64,000 bases of DNA, from positions 22,223-86,222 of the forward strand of contig JANWYQ010000210.1 of assembly GCA_025055015.1 (NCBI GenBank), given 5' to 3'. The translations under genes were made by a program, and so were the position numbers. This stretch comes from Caldilineales bacterium. Lineage in GTDB: Bacteria; Chloroflexota; Anaerolineae; JAAEKA01. Shown piece by piece: positions 8,639 through 35,935 of this stretch (within the stretch, counting starts at the first letter, position 1; each line of letters opens with the position of its first letter). The notes under the pieces were generated by a model. The model did not search any database, was not told the origin of the DNA, and was given only the letters and a program-made list of their open reading frames with translations.

Positions 8639-8667
8639 TTTTGCAGCATGGTTTGATTTGTGCTATA
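8639..8667 (+). promoter_or_regulatory. Putative promoter TTGCAG-17-TATAAG with extended -10 (TGc), driving a ~180-nt leader
   Basis: Hexamers and spacer seen in a lower-GC intergenic stretch directly after the kynU stop. Confidence 0.35.
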
Positions 8668-16899: not shown

Positions 16900-18780
16900 A
16901 TGTTTCCATCGGCGGCGGGTTGGACGGACAAGGTTGAGCCATCGGAGCTCGACCGCCGGCCAGCCCGCCGGCCGCTTTGGTGCGTCGTTGTGCGTCGTTC
17001 GAACCTGGCGTGGCTGCCTCTGTCGCTGGTTCTCCTGGCCGGCTGTGTAGTGCTGCAGCCGGAGATGCCTACACCTCCCGCTCCGCCGGAGGCGACGGCG
17101 CTCCCCACACTGCTGGAGACCCCGGCCGTTCCGGCTGCAACGCCTGAGCCTGAGGCGCCGACCCCGGAGCCGCCGTCCGCCGTGTTCTACAACCTGGGCG
17201 ACGCGACGGTGGTGCAGGCGCGCTTTCCCAAGGGCAACCGCTTCCGCAACATGCCGGTGCGGCTGAACGGCGCGCTGGCCGCGCCGACTGAGGGCGAAGG
17301 CCCCTTTCCGGTGGTGGTGATCCTGCACGGCACGCACGTCGGCTGTCCTGTGGGCGCCGGCGAGGCCGACGTTTGGCCGTGCGCGCCGGAGGAGGAGCAG
17401 CCCAACTACAGCGGCTTCGAGTACCTGGTGCGCAGCTTGGCTGCCCACGGCTACGTGGCCCTAGCGCCCAACATCAACGCCGAGTACACCGTCGGCTTCG
17501 GCGAGCCGACCTTCGGCCAGCGGGCCAAGCAGCTGCTGGACCTTCACCTGCGCGGCCTGGTGGAAGCGGCTGCGGGCAAGAGCACAGCCTTCGGGGTGGA
17601 CCTGGCTGGCCGTGTGGACCTGGGGCGGCTGGCGCTCTTCGGCCACTCGCGCGGGGGTGAGCTGGCCTGGTACCTGGTGAATCGCCTGGACTGGCCAGCG
17701 ACGGACAGCAGCTACGGCCCGGTAGCGGGGGTTCTGCAGATCGCAGCAGCCTCCAGCGTCGCCGATCCCTGGCAACCGTCGGCTGTGCCCTTTGCTACCG
17801 TCCTGGCTTCGTGCGACGGCGACATCATGACCCAGGACGGGCAGTTCTTCTACGAGGGCGCGCGGCTGTCCGCCGACCAGTCGGCGTGGGCTGCGTCGGT
17901 CTGGCTAGAGCGGGCGAACCACAACAACTTCAACGCCTTTCTGAAGCCCGACTATCAGCCCGTGGATCGCCCGGATTGCGCCACGGTCCTGGAACCCGAG
18001 GCGCAGCGCGGCTGGCTGGTCGCCTATGCCGCCGATTTCCTAGCGGCGGTGTTAGCGCCGGAGCCGGAGGCGGCTGCTCAGGCGTTGGCGCGGCTGGGCC
18101 TGGACGTGGCCGCCCCTGCGCCCACCGAGCTCTATGGCCTGCCGGCGCGCGTGGCTTTCCTGCCGCCTGCGGCCAACCGCCAGACGCTGTGGACGCCGGC
18201 CAGCGAGGAGGAGCTCGCCATCCATCGTCTGGGCGGCCAGGTGCTGGCCGAGGACGTGAGCGTGGTGTTCTGCCCCAGCCGATACTACCTTCCCAACCAG
18301 GCGCCGGACAAGGGGGCCTGTCGGCGGCACTACGTGACGGTGCCCGGCCAACCGGCGTTTGCGGCCGTGGCGTGGGAGCGCCGTGGAGCCGCCCTGCGCT
18401 TCTCCCTGCCGCAGGGCGCCGCCGACCTGAGCGGCTACGCGGCCATCACCCTGCGCGCGGCTGTGGACCCGGCCTCTCCCCTGAACGCGGCCGACCGGCC
18501 GCAAGCCCTCAGCCTGAGTCTGACCGACCGGGCCGGCAACGTGGCGGTGGTCTCCACGTCGCCGGAGGAACCGGCGCTGGCCTTCCCCACCGGCTACATG
18601 AAGGAGAGCGGCGTGTGGGAGGAGGGGATCTTCGTCGGCCGGGTGGTGTTGACGACCCTGCGGCTGCCGCTGGCGCTCTTCTCCGGCGTGGACCTGGCCA
18701 ACGTGGCCGAGGTAGCCCTGGTCTTCGACCAGACCGACAGCGGCTCGCTCTGGCTGGCGGATCTGGAGTGGGCGCGCTAG
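16900..18780 (+). CDS. Lipoprotein alpha/beta hydrolase (chlorophyllase/PAF-acetylhydrolase-like, GHSRGG) with C-terminal beta-rich domain
   Basis: Signal and lipobox LLAGCVV. Nucleophile elbow LFGHSRGG. Pro-rich linker. N-terminal start uncertain. Confidence 0.6.
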   Translation: MFPSAAGWTDKVEPSELDRRPARRPLWCVVVRRSNLAWLPLSLVLLAGCVVLQPEMPTPPAPPEATALPTLLETPAVPAATPEPEAPTPEPPSAVFYNLGDATVVQARFPKGNRFRNMPVRLNGALAAPTEGEGPFPVVVILHGTHVGCPVGAGEADVWPCAPEEEQPNYSGFEYLVRSLAAHGYVALAPNINAEYTVGFGEPTFGQRAKQLLDLHLRGLVEAAAGKSTAFGVDLAGRVDLGRLALFGHSRGGELAWYLVNRLDWPATDSSYGPVAGVLQIAAASSVADPWQPSAVPFATVLASCDGDIMTQDGQFFYEGARLSADQSAWAASVWLERANHNNFNAFLKPDYQPVDRPDCATVLEPEAQRGWLVAYAADFLAAVLAPEPEAAAQALARLGLDVAAPAPTELYGLPARVAFLPPAANRQTLWTPASEEELAIHRLGGQVLAEDVSVVFCPSRYYLPNQAPDKGACRRHYVTVPGQPAFAAVAWERRGAALRFSLPQGAADLSGYAAITLRAAVDPASPLNAADRPQALSLSLTDRAGNVAVVSTSPEEPALAFPTGYMKESGVWEEGIFVGRVVLTTLRLPLALFSGVDLANVAEVALVFDQTDSGSLWLADLEWAR

Positions 18781-20822: not shown

Positions 20823-21059
20823 ATGGCCAAGGTCCACATGGCGATAGTAGATCGTCTCTACGAACAGCAGATACGCTCTCTGTCGGCTGCCGATCGCTTG
20901 CAACTGGTCTCTCGCATCATCGAAGATTTAATCGCGGACGAGCCCCGTGCCAAGCGGAGGATTACGGAGTTGCGCGGCCTGGGCAAGAGAATTTGGCAAG
21001 GTGTTGATGCCCAGCAATATGTCAACGATCTGCGCGACGAGTGGGAGCAGCGCGCATAA
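20823..21059 (+). CDS. Putative type II antitoxin (VapB-like) upstream of PIN toxin
   Basis: Small ORF 5' of and overlapping the PIN gene. TATAAT box at 20766-20771 upstream. Confidence 0.5.
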   Translation: MAKVHMAIVDRLYEQQIRSLSAADRLQLVSRIIEDLIADEPRAKRRITELRGLGKRIWQGVDAQQYVNDLRDEWEQRA

Positions 21060-21094
21060 GGCGAGTTGACGTTGCGCTCCAGGGTGTTGCTAGG

Positions 21095-21508
21095 TTGGGA
21101 GTCGACACGGCGCCATTCATCTACTATATCGAGGAGAACCCGACTTATCTAGCGCGCATCGCTCCCATCTTCTTGGCCGCCGACGCAGGTCAGATCACGT
21201 TGGTCACTTCTACCATTACAGTGGCAGAGGTATTGATCCATCCGCTGCGCTTGGGGGCCGACGATCTGCGGAGGGAATACCTCGACCTCTTCTTGAACAG
21301 CGCAAATCTGGAAATTCAGAGTATTGACATAGAGGTCGCGCAAAGGGCGGCGGAGCTGCGCGTTACTCACAATGTGCGGTTGCCTGATGCTTTGCAAATT
21401 GCGGCTGCGCTGTACGCTGGGTGTACTGCCTTTCTGACGAATGACAGGCAGCTCGGCCACGTGACCGACCTGCGCATTTTGATCGTGGACGAGCTCGAGC
21501 TTGAGTGA
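21095..21508 (+). CDS. vapC: PIN-domain toxin VapC
   Basis: PIN acidic residues ([11 protein letters not shown]..., TNDRQL). Start uncertain: TTG at 21095 preferred; the ORF track starts it at 21041. Confidence 0.6.
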
Positions 21509-24151: not shown

Positions 24152-27100
24152 GTGTTGCTCCCTCGTTGGAGACCAGAAAACGTGATCTATCGTGTCGAAG
24201 TGTCGCTCAGGCCAGGCCTCCCGGACGCGCGCGGGGCGGCGCTGCTGCGGCAGGCCGAGGCGCTGGGGGTGAGGGGGGTGCACTCCCTGGCAGTGGCCGA
24301 CCTGTACTTTCTGGCCGGCGAGCTGGACGAGGACGCCTTGCAGCGGCTGGTGGCCGAGCTCCTCCACGACCCGGTGGTGGAGGAGGCGCTGTGGCGACCT
24401 GTGTCGGCAGGCGCAGAGCCGGCAGCGCCCGCTGACGCCTGGTCCGTCGAGGTGACCTTGCTGCCCGGCGTGACCGACAGCGTGGCCGAGAGCCTGATGG
24501 CCGGCGCTGCGATGATCGGCGTCCACGGCCTGCGCCGGGCTGCCTCCGGCCGTCGCTATACGTTGACGGGGGACCTGAGCGAGGTGGACGTGCACCGAGT
24601 GGCCCGCGGCCTGTTGGCCAACGAGGTGATCCAGCGCTACTGGGTCAACCGGCCGGCGAGGCCGCCCTTCCTGGAGGATGGGCGCGACGGCGCGTCAGGG
24701 GAGGCAGATGGGGCGCCGTGGGTGGAGGTCATCCCCTTGCGGGAGGCGGACGACGCCGGCCTGCTGGCCATCAGCCAGGCGCGGCGGCTGGCCTTGGACC
24801 TGGCCGAGATGCGGGCGATCCAGGCCTACTTCCGGGCGGCGGCGCGCGAGCCCACCGACGTGGAGCTAGAGATGCTGGCCCAGACCTGGTCCGAGCACTG
24901 CGTCCACAAGACCTTCAAGGCCGTCATCGAGTACGTCGGACCGCCTCCGGGCCCGGTGGAGCCAACCAGCGCTCACCGGTCACCGCTTGCCGCTCAGCGA
25001 ATAGACGGCCTGCTCAAAACCTACATCCGCGCGGCCACGGAGAAGGTGGCCAAGCCCTGGGTGCGCTCTGCCTTCGTGGACAACGCCGGCATCGTGGCCT
25101 ACGACGACCGGTTCGACGTGGCCTTCAAGGTGGAGACCCACAACCATCCCTCGGCGTTGGAGCCCTTCGGCGGCGCCAACACCGGCGTGGGCGGCGTGGT
25201 CCGGGACATCATCGGCGTCAGCGCGCGGCCGATCGCCAACACCGACGTCCTGTTTTTCGGCCCGCGCGACCTGCCCTGGGAGCAGCTCCCGGCCGGCGTG
25301 TTGCACCCGCGGCGCATCGCCGACGGCGTGGTCGCCGGCATCGAGGACTACGGCAACAAGATGGGCATCCCCACGGTCAACGGCGCCATCTTCACCGACC
25401 CTGGCTACACGGCCAACCCGCTGGTGTTCTGCGGCTGCGTGGGCATCCTGCCTCACGGCTCCCACCGCACCCAGCCCCAGCCGGGCGATCTGGTGGTGGT
25501 GATCGGCGGCCGCACCGGCCGCGACGGCCTGCGCGGCGCTACCTTCTCCTCCATGGAGATGGACCACCAGACGGGGGAGATCGCCAGCAGCGCGGTGCAG
25601 ATCGGCCACCCGATCCACGAGAAGCAGGTGCTGGAAGCGGTGCTGCAGGCGCGGGACGAGGGGCTGTACAACGCCATCACCGACTGCGGCGCAGGCGGGC
25701 TCTCCTCGGCCATCGGCGAGATGGCCAAGGCGCTGGGCGCGGTGGTGCACCTGGAGCGGGCGCCGTTGAAGTACACCGGCCTGCGGCCGTGGGAGATCTG
25801 GCTCAGCGAGGCGCAGGAGCGGATGGTGCTGGCCGTGCCGCCCGCCCGATGGCCGCGCTTCCAGGCCATCTGCGCAGGGCTGGACGTGGAGGCCACGGCC
25901 TTGGGCGAGTTCACTGGCGATGGCCGTCTGCGCATCTTCTACGGCGAGCACCTGGTGGGCGACGTGGACGTGGCCTTCCTGCACGATGGCATCCCGCAGC
26001 GGCAGCTCAGGGCGGAGTGGCGCCCTGGTCAATGGTCAATGGTCAATGGTCAATGGCCAATGGTCAATGGCCGATGGTCAATGGCCAATGGTCAATGGCC
26101 GATGGTCAATGGCCAATGGTCAATGGCCAATTTGACGGAGGTGCTGGTGGCGCTGCTGGGCATGCCGGAGACGCGCAGCAAGGAGCCTGTGGTGCGGCAG
26201 TACGACCACGAGGTGCAGGGCGGCACCGTGGTCAAGCCCTTGGTGGGCGCGGGGAACGCCGGGCCCGGCGACGCCGCCGTCCTGATCCCGCTGGACGTCC
26301 TGCGTCGAGCGGCGAGCGGTGAACCGTCTGCGGTGAAGCGTGAGGCTGTGCGCGGGATCGCGTTGGCCGTCGGCGCCAACCCCTTCTACACGGCGCTGGA
26401 CCCCTACTGCATGGCCTGGGCGGCAGTGGACGAGGCGGTGCGCAACGTGGTGGCGGTGGGCGCGGACCCCGACCAGGTGTCCCTGCTGGACAACTTCTCC
26501 TGGGGCAATCCTAACCTGCCCGACCGGCTGGGCAGCCTGGTGCGCTGCGTGCAGGGCTGCCACGACGCGGCCGTGGCCTATGCCGCGCCTTTCATCAGCG
26601 GCAAGGACAGCCTGAACAACGAGTACACCGGCGCGGACGGCCAGAAGCACGCCATTCCCGGCACCCTGGTGATCTCGGCCCTGGGCATCGTGCCGGACGC
26701 CGGCCGCACCGTGACCATGGACCTGAAGCGCGCCGGCGACTGGCTGTACATCGTCGGCCTGACGCGCGGGGAGCTGGGCGGGTCGAGCTGGTTGCGCCGC
26801 TTCGGCGCCGCTGCAGTGGGCGTTCCGCCCCAGCCGCCCACGGACGCCCTCGACCTGTATCGCCGCTTGCACCGGGCTATCCGCCAGGGGCTAGTGCAGG
26901 CCTGCCACGACTGCTCCGAGGGAGGCCTGGCCGTGGCCGCGGCCGAGATGGCGCTGGCCGGCGGGCTCGGCCTGGAGCTGCGCCTGGCCGCGGTTCCCCG
27001 CACGGCCGAGGCCGACAGCGACGCCGTCGTCGCTTTCTGCGAGTCCCTGGGCCGGCTGCTGGTGGCCGTGCGCCCCTCCGCCTCCGACGCCTTCGAGGCC

Positions 27101-27235
27101 CTGCTGGCCGGCCACCCTGTGGCCCGCATCGGCCGCGTGCGCAGCGACAACAGGATCGTCGTGACAGGCCTAGGCGGCCAGCCGGTCATCGAAACCGATC
27201 TGACCGCCGTGGAAAAAGCCTGGCGCAGCGAGTGA
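24152..27235 (+). CDS. purL: FGAM synthase subunit PurL with two fused N-terminal PurS-like domains (PurS-PurS-PurL)
   Basis: Two ~85-aa PurS-like repeats followed by PurL motifs (SEHCVHKTF, DCGAGGLSSAIGEMA, duplicated AIRS-like halves). Contains an in-frame heptamer repeat (see repeat feature). Confidence 0.85.
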   Translation: MLLPRWRPENVIYRVEVSLRPGLPDARGAALLRQAEALGVRGVHSLAVADLYFLAGELDEDALQRLVAELLHDPVVEEALWRPVSAGAEPAAPADAWSVEVTLLPGVTDSVAESLMAGAAMIGVHGLRRAASGRRYTLTGDLSEVDVHRVARGLLANEVIQRYWVNRPARPPFLEDGRDGASGEADGAPWVEVIPLREADDAGLLAISQARRLALDLAEMRAIQAYFRAAAREPTDVELEMLAQTWSEHCVHKTFKAVIEYVGPPPGPVEPTSAHRSPLAAQRIDGLLKTYIRAATEKVAKPWVRSAFVDNAGIVAYDDRFDVAFKVETHNHPSALEPFGGANTGVGGVVRDIIGVSARPIANTDVLFFGPRDLPWEQLPAGVLHPRRIADGVVAGIEDYGNKMGIPTVNGAIFTDPGYTANPLVFCGCVGILPHGSHRTQPQPGDLVVVIGGRTGRDGLRGATFSSMEMDHQTGEIASSAVQIGHPIHEKQVLEAVLQARDEGLYNAITDCGAGGLSSAIGEMAKALGAVVHLERAPLKYTGLRPWEIWLSEAQERMVLAVPPARWPRFQAICAGLDVEATALGEFTGDGRLRIFYGEHLVGDVDVAFLHDGIPQRQLRAEWRPGQWSMVNGQWPMVNGRWSMANGQWPMVNGQWSMANLTEVLVALLGMPETRSKEPVVRQYDHEVQGGTVVKPLVGAGNAGPGDAAVLIPLDVLRRAASGEPSAVKREAVRGIALAVGANPFYTALDPYCMAWAAVDEAVRNVVAVGADPDQVSLLDNFSWGNPNLPDRLGSLVRCVQGCHDAAVAYAAPFISGKDSLNNEYTGADGQKHAIPGTLVISALGIVPDAGRTVTMDLKRAGDWLYIVGLTRGELGGSSWLRRFGAAAVGVPPQPPTDALDLYRRLHRAIRQGLVQACHDCSEGGLAVAAAEMALAGGLGLELRLAAVPRTAEADSDAVVAFCESLGRLLVAVRPSASDAFEALLAGHPVARIGRVRSDNRIVVTGLGGQPVIETDLTAVEKAWRSE
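26016..26120 (+). repeat. 15 x 7-bp tandem repeat (TGGTCAA/TGGCCAA/TGGCCGA), in frame within the purL inter-domain linker
   Basis: 105 bp of perfect 7-nt periodicity encoding GQWSMVN/GQWPMVN x5. Confidence 0.9.
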
Positions 27236-27320: not shown

Positions 27321-27348
27321 GGTTACCGTTCACCGCTCACCGTTCAGC
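27321..27348. repeat. Heptamer repeat GTTCACC-like (4 units) in the purL-purQ intergenic region
   Basis: ggttaccgttcaccgctcaccgttcagc. Confidence 0.55.
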
Positions 27349-31491: not shown

Positions 31492-31728
31492 ATGACAGTT
31501 ACTGTGTCTGTTTACGAGGCAAAGGCCCTGTTTTCTGAGCTTTTGGATCGCGTGGTCGCCGGCGAAGAGGTACTTATCGCCGATGCCGGGAAGCCTGTAG
31601 CCCGCCTGATGCCGTTCGTCGAGCAGCCGACACAAAGAACACCAGGCACGGCGATAGGCAAGATCACCATAGCCCCAGATTTCGACGATCCCTTGCCTGA
31701 CGAGATTTTGGACCTCTTCGAGGCATGA
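31492..31728 (+). CDS. Type II antitoxin, Phd/YefM-like
   Basis: MTVTVSVYEAKALFSELLDRV...PVARLMP fits the Phd/YefM fold. Stop overlaps the vapC start (ATGA). Confidence 0.55.
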   Translation: MTVTVSVYEAKALFSELLDRVVAGEEVLIADAGKPVARLMPFVEQPTQRTPGTAIGKITIAPDFDDPLPDEILDLFEA

Positions 31729-32111
31729 GAGCGTTGCTAGACACGCACGCGTTTCTGTGGTGGATCACCAATGATCCACGGCTAACTGCACGCGTGCAGA
31801 AGACCGTCCAGAACCCTGGAAACCTCATCTTCTTGAGCGCAGCTAGCGGATGGGAGCTTGCTATTAAAGCGAGCATCGGCAAACTTCATGTGTCTCAAGA
31901 TCTCGATACGTTTATCAGTGAACAGTTGACGCTCAACCGCATTGATGTGCTGCCCGTACTGATGAGCCACGCTCTCTTCGTGCGCAAATTGCCCGCGCAC
32001 CACAGAGACCCCTTTGATCGTTTGTTGGTGGCCCAGAGCCTTGTTGAAGGGATGCCCCTGATAACAAGCGATCCGCTAATCGCGAAATACTCCGTGCAGG
32101 TGATCTGGTAG
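31725..32111 (+). CDS. vapC: PIN-domain toxin VapC
   Basis: LLDTHAFLWW..., SAASGWELAIK, and ITSD motifs of VapC. Confidence 0.75.
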   Translation: MRALLDTHAFLWWITNDPRLTARVQKTVQNPGNLIFLSAASGWELAIKASIGKLHVSQDLDTFISEQLTLNRIDVLPVLMSHALFVRKLPAHHRDPFDRLLVAQSLVEGMPLITSDPLIAKYSVQVIW

Positions 32112-33464: not shown

Positions 33465-34037
33465 ATGTACGATGGGCCGGCAGAGCTGTTGACCTACTTC
33501 CCGGACTTCCGCTACTGGCTGGTGGATCTCAGCCAGTTCACCGACCAGGAGGTCCGCGGCGAGGCGGTCTTGCGGCTGGTCCTCCTGGCCATGAAGCATG
33601 TCAACGACCCAGACGGCATCCGTCGGGTCTGCGAGATCTTCGACCTAATGGAGCGGCTGTGGCAGACGGAGAGCACGGCGGAGGTCGTAGCCTTGGTCTT
33701 GCGCTATCTCGCCACAGGCAGCACCACCATGACGGAAGCAGACCTGCGAGACGCCATGGAGCAACATTGGCCCGAAGGAGTGACGATTATGGCAACGATA
33801 GCAGACAATTGGTTGCGGCAGGGCATTCAGCAAGGCATTCTGCAAGGGCGACGTGAGGGCTTGATTGACGCGATCAGCCTGGGCATCCGCCTGCGCTTCG
33901 GCAAAGAAGGGCTGCCGCTCCTGCCCGAAATCCGCAGGATCGAGGACATCGCGGTGTTGGAGGCCATCTACGACAGCTTTGAAACCATCGAAAGCCTCGA
34001 CGACCTGCGGCGCATCTACGCCCGACCCCAGCCATGA
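33465..34037 (+). pseudogene. Rpn/YhgA-like putative transposase, C-terminal portion only (DUF4351-like); N-terminal PD-(D/E)XK domain missing
   Basis: C-terminal ...WLRQGIQQGILQGRREGLIDAISLGIRLRFG... resembles Rpn-family tails. The ORF is ~190 aa versus ~300 for intact members. Wedged between purD and purM. Confidence 0.4.
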
Positions 34038-35057: not shown

Positions 35058-35675
35058 ATGCCCCCTCGCCTCGCCGTTCTCATCTCCGGCAGCGGCACCA
35101 ACCTGCAGGCCATCATGGACGCCATCGCAGCTGGCCGGCTCGACGCACAGATCGTGGTCGTGGTGTCCAACCGCCGCGACGCCTATGGCCTGGTGCGCGC
35201 GGGGCGGGCCGGCATTCCTACCCTCTACGTTCCCCTCAAGCCCTACACCGAGGCAGGCCGGCCGCGCGCGGACTACGACGCCGACCTGGCCGAGCGGGTG
35301 GCGGCCTACGCGCCCGACCTGGTGGTGTTGGCCGGCTGGATGCACGTGCTCAGCCCGTCCTTCCTGGATCGCTTTCCCGGCCGCGTTCTCAACCTGCACC
35401 CGGCGCTGCCCGGCCAGTTCCCCGGCACCCATGCCATCCAGCGCGCGTTCGAAGCTTTCCGGCGGGGGGAGATTGACCACACCGGCGTCATGGTCCACTG
35501 GGTGGTGCCCGAGGTGGATGCCGGGCCGGTGATCGCCAGCGAGGTTGTCCCCATCCTCCCCACGGACACGGTGGACGACCTGGAGGCGCGTGTCCACGCC
35601 GTCGAGCATCGCCTGTTGGTGGAGGCTATCCGCCGCGCGTTGGGGGAGCGGTGGTCGGTGAACGGTGAACGGTGA
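35058..35675 (+). CDS. purN: GAR formyltransferase PurN
   Basis: LISGSGTNL, NLHPALPG..G, HxV..ExDxGP motifs. C-terminal tail (GERWSVNGER) is encoded by heptamer repeats. Confidence 0.85.
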   Translation: MPPRLAVLISGSGTNLQAIMDAIAAGRLDAQIVVVVSNRRDAYGLVRAGRAGIPTLYVPLKPYTEAGRPRADYDADLAERVAAYAPDLVVLAGWMHVLSPSFLDRFPGRVLNLHPALPGQFPGTHAIQRAFEAFRRGEIDHTGVMVHWVVPEVDAGPVIASEVVPILPTDTVDDLEARVHAVEHRLLVEAIRRALGERWSVNGER

Positions 35676-35692
35676 ACGGTAAACGCTGAACG
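35654..35692. repeat. Heptamer repeat GGTGAAC x ~5 spanning the purN stop codon
   Basis: ggtggtcggtgaacggtgaacggtgaacggtaaacgctgaacgg. Confidence 0.7.
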
Positions 35693-35693
35693 G

Positions 35694-35935
35694 TTTTTGT
35701 GGAGTGCGCACCCCCAGGTGCGCACGGGGGTTGGGTTTTGCGAAGTGCGCCCTCCAGGTGCGCGCCAGCCCCTAGGTTTTCGGAGTGCGCACCCCTAGGT
35801 GCGCAGGGGGGCTGGGTTTTGTGGAGTGCGCTCCCTGGGTCCGCGCCAGCCCCTAGGTTTTCGGAGTGCGCCCCCCAGGTGAGCACGGAAAGGTTGCACC
35901 CCTAGGTGCGCACGGGAGGGTTGCCCCCGTCTTGC
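35694..35935. repeat. Tandem array of ~6 degenerate 41-bp units, each with a 9-bp GC hairpin (GTGCGCACC-cccA-GGTGCGCAC) and a TTTT tract; REP/BIME-like
   Basis: Units TTTTGyGGAGTGCGCnCCCCyAGGTGCGCrsGGGsyGG repeated head-to-tail between convergent purN and the exonuclease gene. Confidence 0.75.

Follow-up and report, generated by a model that had tools for sequence, protein, structure and literature searches.

A heptanucleotide repeat in the interdomain linker of a PurS-PurL fusion from a Caldilineales bacterium and its probable origin by slippage

Introduction

How does a tandem repeat with a unit of seven nucleotides come to lie in frame in the middle of a purine biosynthesis gene, and is it a tolerated simple repeat, a switch or a functional part of the enzyme? 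The question is raised by the gene purSL of an uncultured Caldilineales bacterium (Chloroflexota; Anaerolineae), found in a stretch of 64,000 nucleotides of contig JANWYQ010000210.1 (assembly GCA_025055015.1, positions 22,223 to 86,222 of the forward strand). The whole stretch is called the window below, and coordinates are those of the window unless a locus is named. A preliminary description, made from the letters and open reading frames (ORFs) of this DNA, had regarded the repeat as either a recently expanded simple sequence repeat (SSR) or a contingency-type switch.

The repeat tract and its host gene

Direct reading of the sequence gave 15 gap-free units of 7 bp, located within purSL:

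26026..26130, + strand, heptanucleotide repeat of 15 units encoding five GQWSMVN-like heptads (Tandem Repeats Finder, sequence, unit list)
24182..27235, + strand, purSL, fused PurS-PurL of 1017 residues with a GTG start (Pfam, PDB matches, identity with MCS6845743.1)

The length of 105 bp, the number of 15 units and the three unit variants agreed with the preliminary description, which had placed the tract at 26016-26120, ten bases too far to the left. Tandem Repeats Finder reported a single array at 26026..26131 (period 7, 15.1 copies, 0% indels), with 94% matches for the array at period 14. The unit make-up is TGGTCAA (n=8), TGGCCAA (n=5) and TGGCCGA (n=2). Units 1-7 are, in order, four TGGTCAA, TGGCCAA, TGGTCAA and TGGCCGA; they are followed in units 8-15 by TGGTCAA, TGGCCAA, TGGTCAA, TGGCCGA, TGGTCAA, TGGCCAA, TGGTCAA and TGGCCAA. 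Units 11-14 are an exact copy of units 7-10, giving a higher-order period of 14/28 bp, and units 4-10 plus 5 nt, together about 55 nt, recur without change 28 bp downstream.

The two-unit degenerate pattern TGGYCRATGGYCRA, with at most one mismatch, had 17 matches in the window compared to 0.31 expected from shuffles, and 17 matches were reached in 0 of 100 shuffles. When the 64 kb were scanned for long tracts with periods 4-15, only period 7 was found, together with its multiple 14 in the same two places. These two long period-7 tracts are the one in purSL and a second one at 35650-35694. The purSL tract has two of the features by which SSRs are recognized, namely short head-to-tail units and a length beyond chance for the composition.

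The repeat sits in frame within an ORF at 24152-27235 on the + strand. The first possible start, at 24152, was rejected after an exact look-up of its product gave no match. The 1017-residue product of the true start, GTG at 24182, was identical to NCBI MCS6845743.1, which is annotated 'PurL [Caldilineales bacterium]' and comes from an 88,951-bp contig of a metagenome-assembled genome (MAG). Pfam recognized PurS, the FGAR-AT linker, and AIRS and AIRS_C in two stretches each. The best solved relatives found with HMMER were PurL of T. thermophilus (3viu, 2e-86) and of T. maritima (3d54, 3e-69). By its domain matches the gene is predicted to encode a PurS-PurL fusion, a subunit of formylglycinamidine ribonucleotide (FGAM) synthase; the earlier gene call, purL, was right and is made more exact by the Pfam result. 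The purine cluster has the order guaB-purSL-purQ-purC-purE-purF-(toxin/antitoxin pair)-purD-(Transposase_31-like ORF)-purM-purN.

The tract is translated as P-GQWSMVN-GQWPMVN-GRWSMAN-GQWPMVN-GQWSMAN-L, so the five in-frame heptads claimed earlier were seen, with variants. They lie at about residue 617 of 1017, about 18 residues ahead of RQYDHEVQG. The HMMER alignments to 3d54 and 3viu break off at EWRPGQ and restart at LTEVL, which places the 35 repeat-encoded residues, as an insertion, in the linker that joins the two AIRS/AIRS_C halves. The location proposed in the preliminary description, between two AIRS-like halves and ahead of RQYDHEVQG, was hereby borne out by Pfam and by the solved structures. 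An AlphaFold2 model (98 homologues, pTM, the predicted template modelling score, 0.83) gave coil for residues 619-642, with a predicted local distance difference test (pLDDT) score below 50, between a strand at 608-612 and a helix at 643-647. This low-confidence coil in the model is consistent with a disordered loop. The comparison with PurL structures that had been proposed for the insertion site therefore gave a break between the halves in 3d54 and 3viu, and a coil in the model.

History of the linker site

The linker was compared from FLHxG to PET in 105 homologues of 900-1150 residues. In most of them this segment was 44-45 residues long and non-periodic, for example WTPPAVSEPDWPCPSDLT. 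In a clade with 68-85% identity to the protein of the window, the segment was 45 residues long and made up of two heptads (QLSIVNC-QLSIVN, QLTIDNC-QLTIDN, PLTINHS-PLTINH and EQLTVNG-ERLTVN). Three heptads and 52 residues were found in the homologue P0011, and five heptads and 66 residues in the protein of the window. The DNA at the linker site reads CAGTTAA CGGTTAA CGGTGAA CGGTTAA CGGTTAA in an 85%-identical orthologue (L087), and consists of six CCATTNN units in another locus, L002. Translation of the units gives LSIVNCQ for TTGTCAA, LTIDN-stop-Q for TTGACAA, where the stop is mutated to Cys, and LTIDH-stop-P for TTGACCA.

A chain of single-base changes in the same orientation, TGGTCAA-TTGTCAA-TTGACAA-TTGACCA, joins the unit of the window to those of its relatives, and each step was found in orthologues. 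The heptad peptide varies between species, and only the 7-nt periodicity is conserved. Because the units are related by single-base steps, the linker site appears to be an old heptanucleotide array, in which the unit turns over while the periodicity stays. Inversion was considered since TTGACCA of the orthologues is the reverse complement of TGGTCAA; it was rejected because of the same-orientation chain of single-base steps. Insertion of a mobile element was rejected as well, since relatives have arrays of 7-bp units that share both the site and the reading frame; the flanks were not searched for target-site duplications and terminal inverted repeats.

According to the preliminary description, the tract would count as a fixed insertion if orthologues lacked it and carried something unrelated, and if population reads showed no length variation. 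The first of these was not so, as the close clade has related 7-bp arrays at the site. The presence of two or three heptads at the same site in orthologues versus five here fits the idea of a recently expanded SSR. Comparison of purL copy number in relatives, which had been suggested as a check, gave 2, 3 and 5 heptads between species, and 15 versus 11 units between two genomes of the same species.

A second allele with eleven units

The 11-unit allele was found in a protein search, which returned a 641-residue protein (P0022) with 100% identity to the first 62% of the query and a stop directly after ...GQWPI. Its source is a second MAG, GCA_033578055.1 (contig JAVQXR010000002.1, 131,731 bp; locus L001), whose annotation divides purSL into two genes, with products of 641 and 370 residues and a 13-nt overlap (L001 6001-7926 and 7914-9026). 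By blastn and MAFFT this MAG is collinear with positions 298-45050 of the window, with about 99.9% identity and about 44 single-nucleotide polymorphisms. The indels in these 45 kb were a 28-bp deletion in the repeat, the only multi-base one, and one of 1 bp at 8643. The latter is intergenic and lies beside a T7 run. The 28-bp deletion corresponds to four units and leaves 11 units in GCA_033578055.1. The array at 35650-35694 and a neighbouring REP-like (repetitive extragenic palindrome-like) array at 35695-35928 were identical in both MAGs. Three features describe the second allele:

26046..26073, + strand, 28 bp absent from GCA_033578055.1, their placement within the array being arbitrary (blastn, MAFFT against L001 and L082)
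26123..26125, + strand, ATG across units 14/15, start of the 370-residue gene (MANLTEV...) in the 11-unit allele (L001 genes, translation, simulation)
26133..26135, + strand, TGA 3 nt past the repeat, stop of the 641-residue gene in the 11-unit allele (end of P0022, sequence, simulation)

An ATG is formed at every unit junction, and the TGA at 26133..26135 is read in the frame that is entered when the unit number equals 2 modulo 3. In simulated alleles of 9-18 units, an in-repeat ATG was always in frame with the C-terminal half, and the out-of-frame alleles (unit number not divisible by three) had N-terminal products of 641-715 residues. Since such an ATG is in frame, out-of-frame alleles would consist of two ORFs, cut exactly at the inter-half linker. 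The simulation confirmed the earlier claim that only changes of three units keep the frame. The further claim that slippage by a single unit inactivates the enzyme was correct as to the break of the frame; inactivation was too strong a word, as two ORFs result both in the simulation and in the annotation of GCA_033578055.1.

A metagenome scan for the left flank and repeat junction gave no further conspecific purSL. When purQ and the C-terminal half were looked up, GCA_033578055.1 was the sole MAG returned, and no Logan contig crossed the repeat. No third allele is therefore available.

Period-7 tracts across purSL loci and in other genomes

Period-7 tracts were counted in 1.46 Mb, made up of 80 purSL loci (L002-L081) from one-per-species genomes, mostly Anaerolineae-type Chloroflexota, together with the conspecific locus L001 and the window. 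There were 82 tracts of period 7, compared to 10, 20 and 5 of periods 6, 8 and 9. After merging of overlaps, 34 of the period-7 tracts in the 80 loci fell within purSL (227 kb) and 28 in flanking DNA (1,153 kb), which gives the gene about six times the density of its flanks (binomial p = 6e-12). The tracts cluster at relative purSL positions 0.08-0.14, 0.21-0.35, 0.62-0.74 and 0.79-0.92, and the tract of the window lies at 0.62. The enrichment may mean no more than that this large fusion protein has several loops which are long and permissive. One intact reading frame was found in 19 of the 19 tract-bearing purSL genes among the 80 loci. The only split purSL among the 80, that of L007, is caused by a 1-nt deletion in a G-run and no repeat is involved. 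This single-base deletion (L007 12440-12500, Caldilineales MAG ABC2.10) lies in the G-run GCCGGGATCTGATC; the split looks like a homopolymer sequencing error and not a repeat effect.

Traces of such arrays were also observed in two other loops of purSL in the window:

24941..25000, + strand, decayed period-7 segment in another purSL loop, PTSAHRSPLAAQ (lag-7 identity 0.47 versus 0.26-0.38 at other lags)
26290..26345, + strand, decayed CGGTGAA-type segment in a third purSL loop, ASGEPSAVKRE (lag-7 identity 0.57 versus 0.16-0.36 at other lags)

Orthologues hold long TTCACCG-type arrays where the window has the first segment. The homologue P0003 has an insert of repeated TDDRSPT near residue 259, and near residue 714, where the window has the second segment, it has TVNGERSTVNGE. 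Very long TTCACCG-type arrays of four to eight or more heptads (TDDRSPT/TDHRSPI) were seen at residues of about 288-347 in P0003 and about 312-343 in P0010, both close orthologues, in a different loop, which leads from the FGAR-AT linker to the first AIRS domain. The Anaerolineae/Caldilineales-type Chloroflexota lineage is prone to 7-bp repeats. Another Caldilineales MAG has a (CCCCAGT)n tract just upstream of the purSL start (L002 2540-2574), with the unit of the cyanobacterial STRR1 (short tandemly repeated repetitive) sequences.

At least three perfect copies of TGGTCAA in tandem were found on at least 120 unrelated metagenome contigs with 33-69% G+C. In genes for MetH, a Clp ATPase and an altronate dehydratase on unrelated contigs, the array is read in frame and encodes NGQWSMVNGQ. 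Four contigs (L101, L186, L202 and L104), from unrelated organisms with about 50-57% G+C, hold (TGGTCAA)4-7 in frame; L104 has two NGQWSMVNGQ inserts in one ORF, and L101 has SSLFTLxSSL heptads too.

Origin of the repeat and alternative explanations

The tract is probably a long simple sequence repeat (LSSR) which was expanded in place by slippage and is tolerated in a permissive linker. Replication slippage would have grown the array in a structurally permissive and probably disordered linker of the PurS-PurL fusion, where it would be tolerated as an in-frame extension of 35 residues, presumably neutral. The inter-half linker would be an old and recurrently used site for 7-bp repeats, holding about six units of the related heptamers TTGTCAA, TTGACAA, TTGACCA and CGGTTAA in the close clade, and the unit would have become TGGTCAA in the species of the window. 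TGGTCAA, TTGTCAA and TTCACCG are open in every frame, and stops are present in TTGACCA, TTGACAA, CGGTGAA and CGGTTAA. Because TGGTCAA has no stop in any frame, a pure array could lengthen and still leave the protein uncut. The core is palindromic in the form TGGCCA and, with G.T or G.U pairing, in the form TGGTCA as well. In fold calculations the array formed a long hairpin (RNA -89.9 kcal/mol, z = -6.9; DNA z = -3.0), and slipped-strand intermediates would be favoured by this folding back of a quasi-palindromic core. The open-frame unit and the hairpin are plausible reasons for the longer array here than in relatives. Selection would hold the unit number at a multiple of three, and the latest changes appear to have shifted blocks of two or four units. 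We infer slippage as the mechanism at this locus from the structure and history of the array.

Several observations weigh against this explanation. The sole length difference, 15 versus 11 units, may be an assembler artefact, and neutrality is assumed for an insert of 35 residues that is rich in Trp. A strictly essential fused gene also sits uneasily with an out-of-frame allele in the consensus of an entire MAG. The six-fold enrichment in purSL goes beyond simple tolerance and could indicate a function. Furthermore, the low pLDDT of the linker was to be expected anyway, as the other rows of the alignment lack the insert.

How the difference between the two MAGs is to be read affects all explanations, and real slippage and collapse of an assembler loop account for it equally well. 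In a k-mer graph built with k no greater than 55, the exact repeat of units 4-10 plus 5 nt produces a loop, and one skip of it gives exactly the 11-unit sequence. There is an even chance that the difference arose in this way and that nature has a single, in-frame allele of the locus. The missing block is exactly one 28-bp higher-order period, the 11-unit allele breaks an essential gene, and the shorter repeat and the REP-like array are the same in both MAGs; moreover, a k=31 Logan assembly of the species covers the window elsewhere and has no contig for purSL or purQ. However, slippage in vivo between the same 28-bp periods would yield the same product, and single reads of 150 nt can span an array of 77-105 bp. 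That the in-frame 15-unit allele of the window is the artefact is unlikely. The repeat might act as a contingency locus, where slippage would toggle purSL between fused and out-of-frame states and cause reversible purine auxotrophy or altered flux as a form of bet-hedging. The unit is not a multiple of three, the array lies in the middle of the ORF, its 15 units make it long, it is nearly pure when read at period 14, and in-frame and out-of-frame alleles occur in two genomes of 99.9% identity that differ by no other multi-base indel in 45 kb. Precedents are neuO, a heptanucleotide coding switch (PMC13001214), and glpK, a phase-variable metabolic gene as cited in PMC11868660. Such a role is nevertheless improbable. 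purSL is a housekeeping biosynthetic gene in the pur operon and not a surface or restriction-modification gene; frame-changing placement was observed here, whereas a product under fluctuating selection, which is typical of contingency loci though not strictly defining, was not. The frame is intact in all 19 orthologues whose purSL has period-7 tracts, whereas neuO is OFF in 65.6% of the complete K1 genomes that carry it, and with only two alleles known, the OFF allele is the very product expected of a collapsed de Bruijn loop. The junction ATGs, the stop-free unit and the TGA 3 nt past the array mean that out-of-frame alleles would yield split halves. A reversible fusion/fission or ON/OFF switch between the fused enzyme and PurS-PurL(N-half) plus a separately initiated PurL(C-half), cut at the pseudo-dimer linker, is conceivable on these grounds and slightly more improbable still.

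Alternatively, the repeat could be kept for the peptide or structure that it encodes or forms, such as a Trp-rich linker that would tune the PurL halves or the contact with PurQ, or an mRNA hairpin that would slow ribosomes and assist co-translational folding. The long RNA hairpin (z = -6.9), the six-fold enrichment at few recurrent loop positions across Chloroflexota, and the persistence of heptads at the site through the clade with 68-85% identity all speak for this. However, species share the 7-nt periodicity and differ in the peptide sequence of the heptads, and this speaks against a protein function that depends on sequence. Most homologues do with a non-repetitive linker of 44-45 residues, and orthologue units such as CCATTGA would lack the G.U-based hairpin (read by eye, not computed). 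Searches at and around the tract gave no Rfam family and no promoter-like or terminator-like site. A functional insert is considered improbable, on a par with the contingency locus. Of the two possibilities named in the preliminary description, the SSR is favoured by the heptads of the orthologues; the switch is disfavoured by the housekeeping nature of the gene, by the 19 of 19 tract-bearing orthologues in frame, and by a sole OFF allele that may be an artefact. The slippage-grown, tolerated repeat remains the preferred explanation.

Comparison with known heptanucleotide repeats

Heptanucleotides are the most abundant class of 5-11-nt repeats in prokaryotes according to Mrazek et al. (2007), as cited in PMC4679880. 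For LSSRs, polymerase slippage is the proposed mechanism, and repeats within coding regions mostly have units of a length divisible by three (Mrazek, Guo and Shah 2007, as cited in PMC4679880 and PMC11868660). The purSL tract resembles LSSRs as a head-to-tail 7-nt array far beyond chance length; it differs in having a 7-nt unit in the middle of the gene of a housekeeping enzyme.

Coding heptanucleotide repeats are already known from neuO and from 'reverse' TAACTGA repeats in ORFs of Beggiatoaceae. The gene neuO of the E. coli K1 prophage CUS-3 contains an array of 5'-AAGACTC-3' and gives the full-length protein only if the unit number is divisible by three (PMC13001214). The array is located at the 5' end of this phage-borne capsule-modifying gene and has 3-53 units; 65.6% of the complete carrier genomes are OFF, and switching was measured in culture (PMC13001214). 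Both are 7-nt coding arrays with heptad peptides and the divisible-by-three rule, and alleles of differing length exist naturally for neuO and, unless the shorter one is an assembly artefact, for purSL. The purSL array, on the other hand, has TGGTCAA as unit and lies in the interdomain linker of a chromosomal biosynthetic gene with two known alleles, and not at the 5' end of a prophage-borne O-acetyltransferase gene with AAGACTC; the two are not homologous. TAACTGA repeats of marine Beggiatoaceae and cyanobacteria consist of a single unit and are overwhelmingly intergenic, upstream of start codons (MacGregor 2015, PMC4679880). One orientation has stops in all frames; the other is open and is found inside ORFs, mostly at protein peripheries (PMC4679880). 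Here too a lineage-wide heptanucleotide family is seen, and the stop orientation ends genes as CGGTGAA does at the purN stop. The differences are the diversity of the units here and, across the 80 loci, the enrichment of tracts within a single gene, purSL. In glpK of Mycobacterium tuberculosis, a homopolymer undergoes reversible frameshifts with a drug tolerance phenotype, as cited in PMC11868660. The likeness is a frameshift-prone tract in a metabolic rather than a surface gene; the difference is a homopolymer with a demonstrated phenotype in glpK and a 7-nt unit in purSL.

The repeat also recalls the STRR sequences in being composed of tandem 7-nt units. STRR units of heterocystous cyanobacteria include CCCCAGT, TTGGTCA and CAACAGT and are intergenic targets for fingerprinting. 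TGGTCAA is one base off the STRR2 unit; it is not a rotation of any of the three, and the tract is coding and is found in a Chloroflexota (Caldilineales) MAG with 69% G+C. In the searchable literature, which is incomplete, no heptanucleotide repeats were found described in Chloroflexota/Anaerolineae or in purL, and the accessions of the MAGs and runs gave no hits there.

Other features of the window

Two more places with heptanucleotide units were found in the purine cluster:

35650..35694, + strand, second heptanucleotide array, (CGGTGAA) x5.6, overlapping the end of purN (Tandem Repeats Finder, sequence, ORFs)
27322..27346, + strand, three TTCACCG-like units in the purSL-purQ spacer (Tandem Repeats Finder 27325-27346, period 7)

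The CGGTGAA array supplies the TGA stop of purN (35673-35675), and its copy number is the same in the conspecific MAG. It is abutted, in the spacer downstream of purN, by the GC-rich palindromic REP-like array at 35695-35928, which has a 40/81-bp period, e.g. GGAGTGCGCACCCCCAGGTGCGCAC. The TTCACCG-like units end 6 nt ahead of the purQ ATG (27353).

Two small gene pairs with one PIN-domain gene each are located in the region of the purine operon, at 20823-21508 and 31492-32111. The PIN gene of the former is preceded by a 78-residue ORF without Pfam match, and the latter pair contains a PhdYeFM antitoxin gene. Between purD and purM, at 33465-34037, a 190-residue ORF has a weak match to Transposase_31. 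The gene at 16900-18780 has a product of 532 residues in L084 (9399-10997), 596 residues in L083 (16692-18482) and up to 626 residues in the window, all three being conspecific. This spread is a result of start-codon calling and not a length polymorphism, as the DNA is without indels there.

Significance

If the difference between 15 and 11 units is an artefact, the tract is a simple repeat of an ordinary kind that expanded recently within a permissive loop. If it is real, purSL would be a natural example, in a free-living bacterium, of an essential biosynthetic gene with a slippage-prone, non-triplet repeat in its middle, and the frameshifted allele would leave the enzyme cut at a domain boundary rather than destroyed. 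This would bear on the role of simple repeats in driving gene fission and fusion and the evolution of linkers. Should the fusion/fission switch be true, the six-fold enrichment in purSL across Anaerolineae would represent selection for mutable sites. In addition, heptanucleotide arrays recurrently give rise to apparent pseudogenes or split genes in MAGs of Chloroflexota, and to low-complexity inserts with a 7-residue period in Chloroflexota proteins, both of which call for caution among annotators.

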